DNA from: a virus
Reading direction: 5' to 3' (one strand)
Length of the DNA: 64,000 nucleotides
IMG/VR virus record: IMGVR_UViG_3300021197_001902
Span: 26,733-90,732 of that record
Shown here: in pieces, positions 37,416-44,567 of the stretch
How the letters are laid out: the number at the start of each line of letters is the position of its first letter
How positions within the stretch are numbered: the stretch's first letter is position 1
Position numbers and translations under genes: made by a program
The notes under the pieces: generated by a model
The model's input: only the letters and a program-made list of their open reading frames with translations
The model's database searches: none
What the model was told of the DNA's origin: nothing

Positions 37416-38735
37416 TCACAAATTTTCTGCAGCGAAGGATGCGACCCTAGACCTTTCTCCCTTGAGGAGTGTTACGTGAGCAGCTAGTTCAAAATCCTTA
37501 AACTTTTCAACCGCATGGGTTAGTCCGTTTGTCGTTGCATCAATGTAAACATTGTCGATCTGCTCTACGTCACCAGTCAAAATAATCTTTGTACCTTCAC
37601 CAACTCTTGTTATTATAGTCTTTAATTCGTGAGTTGTCAAGTTTTGTGCTTCATCAATTATAATAAAAGCCTGGCCAATTGAGCGCCCACGAATATAAGT
37701 GATAGCTTCAATCTCTATTATACCCTTTTCCATGTAAATGTCAAGGGTCATTTTGTCGTTGCCCATAAGAGTCTGTAGATTATCTTGAATTGGCATGAGC
37801 CATGGCGACATTTTCTCTTCCATAGTTCCGGGTAGGAACCCAATGTCCTTTCCAAGCGGCTGTACGGGCCTAGAAACGATTATACGGTTGTATAAGGATG
37901 TGGAGTCATCTAGAGTCTGTGCAAGCCCTGCAGCGATGGCACAGAGCGTCTTACCGCTACCTGCCTTGCCGATCACGGTGAGAACCTCAATGTCGGGGTC
38001 CATCAGTGCATCTAGTAAGAAAGACTGTTCCTTGTTACGGGCACGAATACCCCAAACGCCGCGGCGGTCTTTATGGAGTTGCCTAAGAGGTGTATTTTCG
38101 TTAATAAATCTTCCAAGCGCTGTCTTTTTCTCGTTTGCGTTAGAAATCAACATCACATACTCGTTGGTTCTGAGTTTTCGGTTTATAAGATAAACTTCTT
38201 TTTTCTCGTAGAATTGATCCACGATCTCATCGTCAACTAGAACTTCGGAGTATCCTTTAAAGATCTCCTCGCTACTATCAACAATTTGCTGATTTTGAAA
38301 ATCTTCACAAGGTAGACCAATCGCATCCGAGATAACACGCATGTTAATATCACGCGAAACAAGTATGACTTGGCGCTCTGACTCTCTTGCAACAGCTCTG
38401 GCCGTCGCAATAATTAAATGGTCTGGGATCTTAATATCTAAATCGGTTGGAAGATCATCAGGATCAATGTCTGCCGCCGAAACAGATTGAAGGATACCCA
38501 GACCCTTTCGGATCCGGACGCCTTTTTTAAGACACCCTCTGGTACGGAGTTCGTCCCAGATGCGGATAATCTTTCTCGCTTGGGCACCAACTAAGTCTTG
38601 GCGCTTTTTGTGCTTATCAATCTCCTCGAATACCTTCAAAGGAACGTAAACGTCGTGATTTTTAAAAGCGTATACTGCGTCTGCATTTGTTAGATAAACG
38701 CTAGTATCTAATACATATATTTTTTTACGGCTCAT
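37416..38735 (-). CDS. phoH: PIN-PhoH (PhoH2-type) ATPase
   Basis: YVLDTSV PIN domain, GKAGSGKT, GFLPG, RGRS, DEAQN, GDVEQID. Confidence 0.92.
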   Translation of the reverse strand: MSRKKIYVLDTSVYLTNADAVYAFKNHDVYVPLKVFEEIDKHKKRQDLVGAQARKIIRIWDELRTRGCLKKGVRIRKGLGILQSVSAADIDPDDLPTDLDIKIPDHLIIATARAVARESERQVILVSRDINMRVISDAIGLPCEDFQNQQIVDSSEEIFKGYSEVLVDDEIVDQFYEKKEVYLINRKLRTNEYVMLISNANEKKTALGRFINENTPLRQLHKDRRGVWGIRARNKEQSFLLDALMDPDIEVLTVIGKAGSGKTLCAIAAGLAQTLDDSTSLYNRIIVSRPVQPLGKDIGFLPGTMEEKMSPWLMPIQDNLQTLMGNDKMTLDIYMEKGIIEIEAITYIRGRSIGQAFIIIDEAQNLTTHELKTIITRVGEGTKIILTGDVEQIDNVYIDATTNGLTHAVEKFKDFELAAHVTLLKGERSRVASFAAENL

Positions 38736-39590: not shown

Positions 39591-39665
39591 TGGAGCGGGT
39601 GATGAGATTCGAACTCACGACGTTCGCCTTGGCAAGGCGATGCTCTACCACTGAGCTACACCCGC
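39591..39665 (-). tRNA. tRNA-Gly(GCC)
   Basis: GCGGGTG acceptor stem, TCGCC-TTGCCAA-GGCGA anticodon arm, TTCGAAT T-loop, encoded CCA. Confidence 0.97.
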
Positions 39666-39666
39666 A

Positions 39667-40455
39667 CTAAATCCACAAAGTCATGCACTGCAGCGAACCA
39701 CCAGATTTTAAAAATTCACTAGTGTTTATTAGTTTTACCTCATATCCTCTAACATCCAATTCTTCAAGAATTTTTTGTGGGCCTGCAGGCATTAAGATCC
39801 GACTATCATACACCACCGAATTGCATGCGAACATAGTTGCATCGTGAACATCCAATGGTATCAGTTCCGGGACATGTTTTTTCAATTTCTTAATAGCTGA
39901 TGGAGCAAAAGCGCCGGGGTAGTATAGAGCGCTCTGAGCCCCTAATAAGCAAAAACAAGTGTCCAAGTGATAGAAATTAGGATGACTTAATTTAAGGGGA
40001 ATCAACTCTAGGTCCAGAATCTTGGCTGCTCTTCTAATGCCGCCCAAGTCGGAGCGCCAACCATAGCCAGCAAACATCTTATCGCCCAAGATAACAGTGT
40101 CTCCGCAACCTTCAAAGTTAATCTGGCGCGGGAGGCGATGGGTTTCATAACCAGCTTCTTTAAACCACTTTTCATATACGTCAGTTTCAGGTTGTCGTTC
40201 TAGATGTCTGAAGTTACTTAAGACTACTTTGTTGTTACGAACTGTCCCGGCATTCGCTGTAAATACCATATCTGGAAGAGAGCGCTCTTGGTCGATCAGT
40301 TTTACCTCGACACCCCATTCTTGTATTCCATTTTTTAGTTTAAACCATTGGTCCATGGCCGCGGCCCTATTAACTTGGGCGCCCTGCATCCATGGGTTAA
40401 TAGAATATACTACATCAAAAAAAGTCGGAGGACATAATAAAACTTTATTGGACAT
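39667..40455 (-). CDS. Amidinotransferase superfamily enzyme (DDAH / arginine dihydrolase-like)
   Basis: CPPTFFDVVYSINPWM, PDMVFTAN, FEGCGD, FYHLDT, GGSLQC. Confidence 0.88.
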   Translation of the reverse strand: MSNKVLLCPPTFFDVVYSINPWMQGAQVNRAAAMDQWFKLKNGIQEWGVEVKLIDQERSLPDMVFTANAGTVRNNKVVLSNFRHLERQPETDVYEKWFKEAGYETHRLPRQINFEGCGDTVILGDKMFAGYGWRSDLGGIRRAAKILDLELIPLKLSHPNFYHLDTCFCLLGAQSALYYPGAFAPSAIKKLKKHVPELIPLDVHDATMFACNSVVYDSRILMPAGPQKILEELDVRGYEVKLINTSEFLKSGGSLQCMTLWI

Positions 40456-40503
40456 ATTATAAATAGCGTTGACTTAAGGTAATTTACAGGTTGCTTGCTT
40501 AAA

Positions 40504-40580
<77 letters not shown>

Positions 40581-40585
40581 TCATA

Positions 40586-40662
40586 TGGTGGGCGGTGAGG
40601 GACTCGAACCCCCGGCCCTCTCGGTGTAAACGAGACGCTCTAGCCAACTGAGCTAACCGCCC
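40586..40662 (-). tRNA. tRNA-Val(TAC)
   Basis: GGGCGGT..., TCTCG-TTTACAC-CGAGA, TTCGAGT, CCA. Confidence 0.97.
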
Positions 40663-40667
40663 GAAAA

Positions 40668-40743
40668 TGGTGGAGATGACAGGAGTCGAACCTGCGGCCT
40701 GATGCGTGCAAGGCAACTGCTCTCCCAACTGAGCTACATCCCC
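40668..40743 (-). tRNA. tRNA-Ala(TGC)
   Basis: GGGGATG/CATCTCC with G3:U70, CTTGCAC loop, TTCGACT, CCA. Confidence 0.96.
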
Positions 40744-40744
40744 A

Positions 40745-40990
40745 TTATTCCGCGGGTAGTTCACGCCACCCACTTTCATTATAAATAGCTTTGCAAATGA
40801 ACTTAAGCTTGAATCTTTCGGCATTCCAATACTGCGGTTCTACCATGGAGATAAAAGACGTTTTGTCTTCTCTCATATAAACATAATATGGCCGGCCCGG
40901 GACTGGCTGAACTCTGCATTCAGCCGAGCGCAAATAAATTCCTGCTACCGCTTCTTCTAGAACATCCAAGTCTTGTGTTTTGTTTACCAT
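40745..40990 (-). CDS. DUF2452-like hypothetical protein
   Basis: PVPGRPYYVY...FISMVEPQYW; start MVNKTQ at 40990. Confidence 0.55.
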   Translation of the reverse strand: MVNKTQDLDVLEEAVAGIYLRSAECRVQPVPGRPYYVYMREDKTSFISMVEPQYWNAERFKLKFICKAIYNESGWRELPAE

Positions 40991-41391
40991 CTGTGATCCT
41001 TGCCTGCCCAATCTTTAAATTTCTCTTCGCCGCCGCGTATCGTCCAATCAGAATCAATTGCAATTTTAGAAGATATTCCACCACGAGGATTAAAGTCCAT
41101 CTCTAAACGTAACCTGTGCGGCGTATAAACGCTCATCAAATCATCATATACAACATTGATCAATCTCTCGTAAGACAAAAGTCGATTACGAAAATCTTGA
41201 AAGTATTTCTTCAAAGATTTCAATTCGATAATACTATCTTTTGGGTAAAATACAATCCACACTGTGGCAAAATCTGGCTGGTCTTTGACACCAATAAAGG
41301 TTACTTCGGGATTTTTAATATTGATCTCGTACCCGTCCCCACTAGGATTAGGCAGTGTCTTTAGTAATGATTTATCGCTCCACTCTTTCAT
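40984..41391 (-). CDS. queF: QueF (preQ0 reductase, T-fold) homologue lacking the catalytic Cys
   Basis: PEVT...QPDFA, ELKSLKKYF (QueF motif), FRN, PRGGIS. The real start is MKEWSD at 41391; the upstream extension overlaps tRNA-Thr. Confidence 0.8.
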   Translation of the reverse strand: MKEWSDKSLLKTLPNPSGDGYEINIKNPEVTFIGVKDQPDFATVWIVFYPKDSIIELKSLKKYFQDFRNRLLSYERLINVVYDDLMSVYTPHRLRLEMDFNPRGGISSKIAIDSDWTIRGGEEKFKDWAGKDHRW

Positions 41392-41401
41392 ATAACATCC
41401 T

Positions 41402-41467
<66 letters not shown>

Positions 41468-41477
<10 letters not shown>

Positions 41478-42082
41478 ATTCTTGTTATTATACTAGGTCT
41501 GACGCCAGAATTCAAGACTATTTGACAAATATGTTCTAATCTCTCAATATGTTCGAATGCTTCCCAAGGATTCTGTCCAACAGAACATACTCCATGATTA
41601 CCTTGGCCAACTACATCGTACTGTAAGATTCCATCCTTTAGCCCAAATGCCCTAGAGGTTTCATCAGCAAGTGCTTGAGAAATAGCGGGAAGCACTGGGA
41701 CATTGGGGCCTACCTTGGTATATCTATAGATCTCTGGGAATTGTAGCGCCATACTCTTGAGGTCCCAACCCGCGTACATTGCTGCTACGATATTCGTCGA
41801 GTGTACGTGTAAGACACACCTAGTGCTCTTAGCGTTTTGGAGAATTTGCCAGTGCATTTCTAACTCTCCTGAAGGACATTCGCCATCATTTACTACCACT
41901 TCGCCATCATGTATCCGAAGAGATTCAACAAACTCTGGATGTATAAGGGTTTTTCTCACGCCTGAAGGAGTGATATAGATCTTGCTCTCTCCGGTTCTTC
42001 GGAGCGAACAGTTGCCATCGCGAGTGGTAATCCATCCGCGTTTATAACACTCTCTCATTACGTCGCCGATTGCGGTTATCAT
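41468..42082 (-). CDS. Class II aldolase/adducin family (FucA/MtnB-like)
   Basis: GNCS, ITPSG, PSGELEMH, HVHS, NHG. Confidence 0.88.
41487..41515 (-). promoter_or_regulatory. Sigma70-type promoter for tRNA-Thr/queF
   Basis: TTGAAT-17 nt-TATAAT, ending 9 nt upstream of the tRNA. Confidence 0.65.
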
Positions 42083-43786: not shown

Positions 43787-44098
43787 TTAGTCGCAACAGT
43801 CGTGTTTATCGTAATTATCTTCTCTGTTGGTCAACTTTACCCACAGTCCCCAAAGTACTGGAATGGCTAGCCAGTGAAAGCACAGTATGAGAGATGCAGG
43901 AATTCCAGCATAGAAGGCCGGGTGTACATGGTTGCCAAGAGCGGCAAATATAATCGGGAAAACTACATCTTCTATGATTTCCCATCCAACGAAGATAATA
44001 ACAAATGCTAGTCCGTTCTTCTTAAGGAAAGCCTTTAACTTTTCAGCGGAAAAGTTGTTTAACTTGTTAGATATTCTAGTTTTTAGCCAATTGATCAT
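43787..44098 (-). CDS. Small membrane protein (103 aa) directly downstream of the mini-tmRNA
   Basis: Start MINWLK at 44098 (the ORF-track extension overlaps the RNA); several hydrophobic segments. Confidence 0.6.
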   Translation of the reverse strand: MINWLKTRISNKLNNFSAEKLKAFLKKNGLAFVIIFVGWEIIEDVVFPIIFAALGNHVHPAFYAGIPASLILCFHWLAIPVLWGLWVKLTNREDNYDKHDCCD

Positions 44099-44107
44099 AA
44101 GTTTTTT

Positions 44108-44189
44108 TGGTGGAGGTGCACGGAGTCGAACCGTGGTCCTGAGAATACCATTGCAGGCCTTAATCTCAGTCGAAACCCAAACCACCCCC
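44108..44189 (-). ncRNA. ssrA: Minimal tmRNA (tRNA-like domain only, 82 nt, no tag reading frame)
   Basis: GGGGGTG-GTTTGGGTTTCGA-CTGAGA...TCTCAG-GAC-CACGG-TTCGACT-CCGTG-CACCTCC-A-CCA. It has a G3:U70 acceptor, a stemless D-loop ending GG.TTCGAC, the GGAC linker and a T-arm, as at the two ends of tmRNA. Confidence 0.85.
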
Positions 44190-44228
44190 TTTTTTAAAAA
44201 TAGTTGTTGACAAGAAAAGACAAATAGT

Positions 44229-44567
44229 TTATTCTCTATTTATGTCATATCTCTTCTTCATCTCAACAAGTGATCTTTGGTTAATCCCAAGTATCCTTCT
44301 TATTTCAATGTTAGTTTCAGCTACACTGATAGTGGCATTATACAATGCTTCTTTAGTAATATTAACCATTTTTGACCAGAGATTAAATCCATACAACTTA
44401 CCATTTGTAAGCCGCATAGAGCATTCTAACTTAAGTCCTATAACTTCTTCAAGGGTTAGAGAAGATAACATTATCTCAAATGCTTCAGATGATTTGCCTT
44501 CTTTACGAAGTTTCTTAGATAATGACTTGTTTCTACTAAAACCCTTTTCTATATTAGGGTTTGACAT
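44229..44567 (-). CDS. Hypothetical basic protein
   Basis: 112-aa ORF. Confidence 0.6.
   Translation of the reverse strand: MSNPNIEKGFSRNKSLSKKLRKEGKSSEAFEIMLSSLTLEEVIGLKLECSMRLTNGKLYGFNLWSKMVNITKEALYNATISVAETNIEIRRILGINQRSLVEMKKRYDINRE

Follow-up and report, generated by a model that had tools for sequence, protein, structure and literature searches.

Tag-less forms of tmRNA, which retain the tRNA-like domain (TLD) and lack the tag frame, have been described in phages and organelles, and have been engineered in the laboratory. The TLD is charged by alanyl-tRNA synthetase (AlaRS), binds EF-Tu approximately as well as tRNA does and SmpB with high affinity, and is known to enter stalled ribosomes (PMC8012679). 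E. coli tmRNA is strongly inhibited by a molecule that consists of the TLD alone (Mao et al., 2009, as cited in PMC4131195 and PMC11915505), and this inhibition did not depend on charging (PMC4131195). The phage TLD-only tmRNA is an already known kind: "Mycobacterium phage DS6A (TLD only)" was listed by Hudson, Lau, and Williams in 2014 (PMC4131195), and the entry was repeated in the 2025 tmRNA database paper, which added CDS-less plastid forms (PMC11915505). DS6A was the sole tag-less phage tmRNA example found in the literature searched. Organellar tmRNAs with a TLD and no tag frame include those of jakobid and oomycete mitochondria (RF02544) and the approximately 65-bp plastid forms of Mallomonadaceae (PMC11915505).

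Here we describe an 82-nt gene, hereafter the mini-tmRNA, in a 64-kb window (the whole stretch of viral DNA that was analyzed). It is almost certainly a functional gene for a tag-less tmRNA, composed of a bacterial-type one-piece TLD alone and preserved by purifying selection across a group of marine T4-like myophages. What is new here is that the full-length and the tag-less tmRNA constitute a natural polymorphism at one locus in this phage group.

Identification of the Gene

The Rfam tmRNA model RF00023 matches the minus strand of the window at 44108-44189 with 63 bits (gathering score 47, E = 3e-22; cmscan of the 64-kb window), exactly at the coordinates and on the strand proposed by an earlier sequence-only reading. 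The alignment spans model positions 1-374, and 13 nt stand in for 306 central positions. The GAC and GGAC motifs are separated by just 29 nt; the mRNA-like domain (resume codon, tag frame, and stop codon) is absent, and the sequence to form the pseudoknots PK1-PK4 is missing, which agrees with the loss of the tag ORF and pseudoknots noted in that reading. The order of the gene is GGG...CCA, and the model of the permuted two-piece tmRNA (RF04321) reaches only 14 bits against a cut-off of 47; with no permuted tmRNA found in the whole 90.7-kb source record, the view of the gene as one-piece holds. The mitochondrial tag-less model RF02544 gave no match at E <= 10 in the whole record, which completes the comparison with Rfam models that the sequence-only reading had proposed.

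ARAGORN reported five tRNAs at 39591-41477 and made no call, tRNA or tmRNA, at 44108-44189. At 60 loci of the family described below it produced no correct mini-tmRNA call (57 without a call, 3 miscalled). The suggestion that tRNA and tmRNA finders could both miss the gene was therefore borne out for ARAGORN and failed for Infernal with Rfam, which scores above threshold here and in 20/20 other family members tested.

The mini-tmRNA fits the DS6A-type layout, that is, a one-piece gene of approximately 65-120 nt running from the 5' to the 3' acceptor strand, in which a short hairpin caps helix 2a. Our own covariance model R1, when constructed from marine copies only, matches DS6A (JN698994, 28478-28560) with 57.8 bits (E = 3e-11) and the same architecture. 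The sequence-only reading had regarded tag-less tmRNAs as known only from mitochondria; this claim of novelty does not stand, given the published DS6A form and its match to R1. Both genes are phage-encoded, one-piece, and approximately 80 nt long, with an acceptor stem carrying G3:U70 and A73, a T arm, and a helix 2a beyond which lie an A-rich bulge and a short hairpin of the form CC...GG. They differ in that DS6A is an actinobacterial siphovirus, whereas the window belongs to a marine T4-like myovirus, in the motifs GUCGAC and GCAC of DS6A versus UUCGAC and GGAC of the window, and in that a full-length allele occupying the same slot has not been reported for DS6A. The DS6A gene (L096:979-1061) has no GenBank feature, scores below the RF00023 gathering score, and is not called by ARAGORN.

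In comparison with the canonical RF00023 tmRNA, the mini-tmRNA is devoid of pseudoknots, resume codon, tag frame, and stop codon. The organellar tag-less tmRNAs co-occur with an organelle-targeted SmpB, whereas the window gene is bacterial-type and virus-encoded. Engineered TLD minimal RNAs are reportedly present with SmpB in crystal structures, in work attributed to Gutmann in 2003 and Bessho in 2007. Such engineered RNAs, including that of the E. coli inhibition test, share with the mini-tmRNA the acceptor stem, the T arm, the D-analogue, and a capped helix 2a; they are laboratory constructs, whereas the mini-tmRNA is natural and conserved, and has a specific A-rich bulge and stub.

Structure of the RNA

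The gene and its parts are as follows (the window coordinate equals 44190 minus the RNA position p):

44108..44189, minus strand: TLD-only (tag-less) tmRNA gene, 82 nt; 63 bits with RF00023 and 90.4 bits with R1
44183..44189, minus strand: 5' strand of the acceptor stem, G1-G7, with G3 at 44187; pairs 7/7 with 44112-44118
44169..44182, minus strand: D-loop analogue (RNA 8-21), unpaired, ending in GG.UUCGAC, with no D stem; from the sequence as aligned to the tmRNA consensus
44140..44168, minus strand: helix 2a, AAG bulge, and 3-bp stub with a hexaloop, replacing the whole mRNA-like and pseudoknot body
44119..44139, minus strand: GGAC linker (RNA 51-54) and T arm (RNA 55-71); T stem 100% paired in the family
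44108..44118, minus strand: 3' strand of the acceptor stem, discriminator, and CCA; U70 and A73 each in 71/71 family members

The acceptor stem (RNA 1-7 with 72-78) comprises 7 bp, GGGGGUG/CACCUCC, in which G3:U76 is the equivalent of G3:U70, the U lying at 44114. It is followed by the discriminator A79 (equivalent to A73) at 44111 and an encoded CCA at 44108-44110 (RNA 80-82). The T stem comprises 5 bp (RNA 55-59 with 67-71) and closes the loop UUCGACU. The acceptor stem with G3:U70, the A discriminator, CCA, the D-region, GGAC, and the T arm, all of which had been listed in the sequence-only reading, can be read directly in the sequence.

Helix 2a spans seven positions (RNA 22-28 with 44-50), including a U27-U45 mismatch, and is followed by an AAG bulge (29-31) and the stub with its hexaloop (32-43). 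The helix itself had been recognized before; its description as closed by a plain loop of approximately 13 nt should be replaced by the AAG bulge, the 3-bp stub, and a 6-nt loop, an arrangement common to the whole mini-tmRNA family. Since the RF00023 consensus, as shown on E. coli ssrA, has a matching layout at the corresponding place (P2a, a 3-nt 5' bulge, and P2b), what the mini-tmRNA keeps is the base of helix 2 and not just any cap.

The single-sequence fold of the 82-nt gene is no better than that of shuffled sequences (z = -1.27), and the T arm is not recovered in it; hence the case for the mini-tmRNA rests on the comparison of homologues.

A Conserved Family of Viral Mini-tmRNAs

Homologues were collected with a pattern of TLD motifs that allowed 15-45 nt between GAC and GGAC. 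The pattern imposed GGGG, GG.TTCGAC, GGAC, and GGTTCGA.TCC, and the invariance of the family at these positions is partly made by the search; the 3' strand of the acceptor stem was not imposed. In IMG/VR, 90 loci were found, representing 65 distinct sequences, whereas the identical pattern yielded only 4 matches in 185,579 bacterial and archaeal species genomes (one per species). The mini-tmRNA family is virus-specific. The 90 loci are an underestimate, since the mini-tmRNAs at L129:1865-1947 and L130:1676-1758, which have GGGAAUUCGAC in the D-analogue, escaped the pattern. In all 65 pattern-found sequences the acceptor stem is paired at 7/7 positions, the 3' strand reading ...CUCCA or CUUCCA.

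Covariation among homologues, proposed earlier as a check, confirmed that the pairing is kept. In a MAFFT alignment of 27 homologues, 94.3% of pair cells are standard pairs, 14/22 pairs have changed on both sides, and the covariation score is 0.658, compared with 0.145 for shuffles (0/500) and 0.07-0.11 for slid controls. When 71 distinct sequences were realigned to R1, 94.7% of pair cells were paired and the covariation was 0.702 versus 0.132 for shuffles, although this alignment is structure-fitted and leans towards the structure. Across the two alignments, compensatory changes were observed in 14-18 of the 22 pairs. All seven pairs of helix 2a have changed on both sides, with 92.6-94% of cells paired; in the T stem, pairing is complete (100%) and 3-4 of the 5 pairs covary.

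The pairs G1:C, G2:C, and G3:U are each present in 71/71 sequences, and acceptor positions 5 and 6 covary. A73 is likewise found in 71/71, so that the alanine identity elements pointed out for the window gene prove to be a property of the entire family. CCA is encoded in 35/71 members, and the median length is 82 nt (range 67-86 nt). The A-rich bulge and the CC that follow helix 2a, which were not imposed by the pattern, are also conserved (A 62/71, A 57/71, A or G 59/71, C 57/71, C 55/71).

Among close relatives, the mini-tmRNA is 88-96% identical, compared with 64-86% for the DNA of the upstream ORF and 44-75% for the leader; two of the differences, A56G with U70C and U22G with A50C, are compensatory stem changes. 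The mini-tmRNA is the best-conserved local element, and one lineage of it recurs in no fewer than 10 phages even though their flanking ORFs share only 61-87% identity.

Other structured RNAs were observed on contigs that carry a mini-tmRNA. The Pistol ribozyme was found in L021:6093-6154 and L038:5916-6012 (52 and 51 bits), in L021 approximately 100 nt upstream of the mini-tmRNA. An EGFOA RNA (62 bits) is present in L019:5398-5503 and a RAGATH-24 RNA (54 bits) in L020:871-1073.

Phage and Genomic Context

The source record is a 90.7-kb IMG/VR contig, approximately 48% complete, from a marine T4-like myovirus, and it carries baseplate wedge, PIN-PhoH, and glycosyltransferase genes. The nearest cultured phages (Melnitz, HTVC008M, and T4-like cyanophages/cyanomyophages) show approximately 35-40% amino acid identity in one protein, and Melnitz does not have the synteny of the slot described below. 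A blastn comparison of the 2.5-kb neighborhood and the 82-nt gene with 50,697 cultured-phage records gave no match, and near-identical DNA is present in marine metagenomes from 10 studies. Neither SmpB nor a tyrosine integrase (PF00589) nor a separate tmRNA coding piece was found in the 90.7-kb record; a search for smpB and for such a piece had been suggested by the sequence-only reading. The relative L029, which is complete according to CheckV (100%; 193,778 bp), has the mini-tmRNA as its sole tmRNA-like gene and is devoid of SmpB, RF-1/ArfB, Pth, and the PF00589 integrase. Because SmpB and integrase are absent even from this complete relative, the RNA must work with host factors, and a role as attP is unlikely.

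The gene lies among the following neighbors:

44229..44567, minus strand: 112-aa ORF that always precedes the tmRNA slot and serves as the synteny anchor; 34-87% identical relatives at 30 IMG/VR loci
44190..44228, minus strand: 39-nt leader between the 112-aa ORF and G1; sole invariant block TGTCAA (44207-44212)
43787..44098, minus strand: 103-aa predicted membrane ORF with two helices, ending in CC and starting 9 nt after CCA; from its translation
39591..41477, minus strand: tRNA genes for Gly, Pro, Val, Ala, and Thr, 2.6 kb downstream; ARAGORN and Rfam

The 112-aa ORF has no Pfam match (even at E <= 5) and no PHROG family. Its AlphaFold model is all-helical and weak (pLDDT 68, pTM 0.39), and Foldseek with this weak model returned only non-significant Fis/LuxR-like helix-turn-helix matches (E > 3). 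The ORF may be functionally linked to the phage tmRNA. The 103-aa ORF follows the mini-tmRNA also in L098, L029, L058, and L032 (79-94% amino acid identity), that is, in five lineages including the window, and it is absent where a full-length tmRNA fills the slot in the relatives compared. In relatives, the slot is likewise followed by this tRNA array. The tRNA genes of the window are interspersed with genes for a PIN-PhoH fusion (37416-38735, minus strand), a DDAH/arginine-deiminase-like protein (39667-40455, minus strand), and a class II aldolase (41468-42082, minus strand).

A sigma-70 scan revealed no convincing sense-strand promoter for the mini-tmRNA gene, and no terminator-like site was found between it and either adjoining ORF. 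The tight spacing of the ORFs without terminator-like sites suggests that the mini-tmRNA is processed from a polycistronic transcript. Contigs from two metatranscriptome runs, one of them a relative's variant, cover the gene and its flanks; DNA carry-over is possible, as these pieces also occur in the DNA runs of that study, and the ends of an RNA cannot be read from contigs, so that the coverage speaks neither for nor against expression.

The leader block TGTCAA is located 16-22 nt past the ORF stop in 12/12 leaders compared, in the mini-tmRNA and full-length alleles alike. On the opposite strand it reads TTGACA, followed 17 nt on by TATTCT in the window, TATCAT in L005, and TATTAT in L058. 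Window positions 44207-44235 (plus strand) are thus a sigma-70-like candidate promoter directed antisense into the 112-aa ORF, which is also seen in L005, L058, and L099-L105. The candidate is conserved in both alleles, the -10 hexamers of the relatives having been read by eye.

Two Alleles in One Slot

The shared synteny of the relatives consists of a DUF6267 gene, a 276-aa ORF, the 112-aa ORF, the slot, and later the aldolase gene and the tRNA array. Among the 30 IMG/VR loci, the slot after the 112-aa ORF is readable in 27, and in 25 of these it holds either a mini-tmRNA or a full-length tmRNA; the two-allele slot was seen across about 28 related marine myophages. The mini-tmRNA (82-83 nt) is carried by the window, L113, L121-L124, and L129-L132, which represent one RNA lineage with a common CCUGCAAKGG hairpin. 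One-piece full-length tmRNAs of 312-402 nt are carried by L114-L120, L125-L128, L134, L136, L137, L139, and L140; the closest of these relatives encode the tag ANDADYGLALAA or near variants according to ARAGORN. The full-length tmRNA of a distant relative (L139:2003-2393) also scores above the threshold of the permuted-tmRNA model along a portion of its sequence, with 48.2 bits.

The full-length tmRNAs of sister phages (L099-L105; 313-316 nt, tag ANDADYGLALAA) have in common with the mini-tmRNA the TLD, the slot, the leader motif, and the acceptor stem GGGGGUG/CACCUCC. They differ in the D-analogue, which is 2 nt longer in the mini-tmRNA (a 5' segment of 21 nt versus 19 nt), and in the sequences of helix 2a and the T stem. 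The identity of the TLD core between the window mini-tmRNA and the sister full-length tmRNA is approximately 0.77 by hand count, compared with 0.79-0.87 between the window and unrelated mini-tmRNAs.

The most distant relatives (34-49% identity) carry the full-length tmRNA or none, and the full-length form is therefore probably ancestral and the mini-tmRNA derived. In the maximum likelihood tree of the flanking ORF, the window and L113 belong to a clade with 100/100 support that also includes seven full-length bearers. The mini-tmRNA label requires five changes on this tree, of which strongly supported branches force at least two, the tree being that of a short protein with many weak inner branches. 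The AU test rejects a single mini-tmRNA clade on the flanking ORF (delta lnL 82.5, p = 5.6e-6). Since the mini-tmRNAs form one RNA lineage but are interleaved on the tree of the flanking gene, the pattern indicates exchange of the alleles by recombination and not repeated deletion.

A recent in-place deletion was considered and rejected: three parts of the sister full-length TLD (D-analogue, helix 2a, and T stem) do not match those of the mini-tmRNA, and the bearers of the two alleles are intermixed on the tree of the flanking gene.

Proposed Function and Alternative Explanations

The presence of an intact tag-encoding tmRNA at the matching position in relatives ties the mini-tmRNA to the trans-translation pathway. 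The two functions put forward in the sequence-only reading, a decoy for SmpB and rescue without a tag, are plausible candidates. With moderate confidence, we propose a role that depends on charging, in which the alanylated mini-tmRNA, together with host SmpB, competes with tagging on stalled ribosomes by accepting nascent chains. The mini-tmRNA would probably be cut from a longer transcript by host tRNA-processing enzymes and then charged with alanine by the host AlaRS via G3:U70 and A73. Its elbow and helix 2a would be bound by SmpB, which has to be that of the host because the phage encodes none, and EF-Tu would bring the complex of Ala-mini-tmRNA and SmpB to ribosomes stalled on broken mRNAs. 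On the ribosome, the mini-tmRNA would compete with full-length tmRNA and could accept the nascent chain. As it has no resume codon or tag frame, the stalled chains would be diverted from ssrA tagging and proteolysis, and it would fall to host factors such as ArfA/ArfB, or to drop-off and Pth, to complete the release.

It is possible, though we doubt it, that the mini-tmRNA is a pure decoy, which soaks up host SmpB (perhaps AlaRS or EF-Tu) off the ribosome and shuts down trans-translation and tagging without accepting a peptide. The phage has no SmpB of its own, all elements of the elbow and helix 2a are present in the RNA, and titration of SmpB was suggested for the E. coli TLD-only construct (Mao et al., 2009, as given in PMC4131195) and restated for DS6A (PMC11915505). 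In E. coli, pure titration would be sufficient, since inhibition by that construct, in the account of PMC4131195, did not need charging. A sponge, however, needs no alanine identity, yet none of the 71 diverged copies departs from G3:U70 or A73, whereas the neighboring acceptor pairs 5 and 6 vary freely. Moreover, the full-length allele in the slot of the relatives would promote the very pathway that a sponge blocks. For these two reasons, namely the invariance of the alanine identity elements and an alternative allele that promotes rescue rather than blocking it, the charging-dependent role is preferred over SmpB titration.

Some other tRNA-like role is improbable; such a role might be that of a decoy that draws off host anti-phage nucleases directed at tRNA or tmRNA, or that of a regulatory RNA that only reuses the fold for stability and processing. 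Mini-tmRNAs are indeed located inside or beside tRNA arrays in many phages, and the inner hairpin differs between subfamilies. The conserved parts, however, are those known for AlaRS, SmpB, and T-loop function and not the variable hairpin, and what other phages carry in this slot is a genuine tmRNA.

The sequence-only reading had itself named a decayed fragment or integration scar as an outcome that would overturn it. A neutral remnant, be it a decaying deletion derivative of a phage full-length tmRNA or an attP-type fragment of host ssrA, is very unlikely, and we consider this explanation already largely refuted. It can draw on the outgroup phages, which hold the full-length form in the slot and make the mini-tmRNA state derived, and on the common location of integration sites at tmRNA 3' ends (PMC4131195). 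Against it, one mini-tmRNA lineage persists in at least 10 phages despite the divergence of the flanking ORF (61-87% identity), with fully paired stems and compensatory changes; both the 5' and 3' halves are present, and no PF00589 integrase is encoded in the record or the complete relative.

An ordinary tRNA, e.g., an odd tRNA-Ala with an anticodon arm, can practically be dismissed, for although the acceptor stem, T arm, and CCA are tRNA-like and the tmRNA and R1 models give real tRNA-Ala 31-33 bits, there is no ARAGORN call and no D stem, the central arm has 7 pairs, a bulge, 3 pairs, and a 6-nt loop instead of 5 pairs with a 7-nt loop, and in the competition among models of the Rfam clan it is tmRNA that prevails, with 63 bits.

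Combining the charging-dependent role with the polymorphism of the slot, we tentatively suggest that the population maintains both alleles and that recombination reshuffles them. Charged with alanine, the mini-tmRNA might then act on the ribosome as a template-less acceptor that either frees stalled ribosomes or adds alanine repeatedly without an ssrA degron, and the phages might thereby switch between rescue with and without tagging.

Significance

The tag-less form of phage tmRNA is not a curiosity, as this locus shows it to be a selected, virus-enriched RNA family, whose members are missed by ARAGORN-based annotation. In one phage group, either the mini-tmRNA or an intact tag-encoding tmRNA occupies this position, behind the same leader. 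This natural allele pair offers a direct comparison of whether phages want ribosome release, tagging, or the inhibition of tagging, and because alanine identity is strictly retained, charging is predicted to matter.
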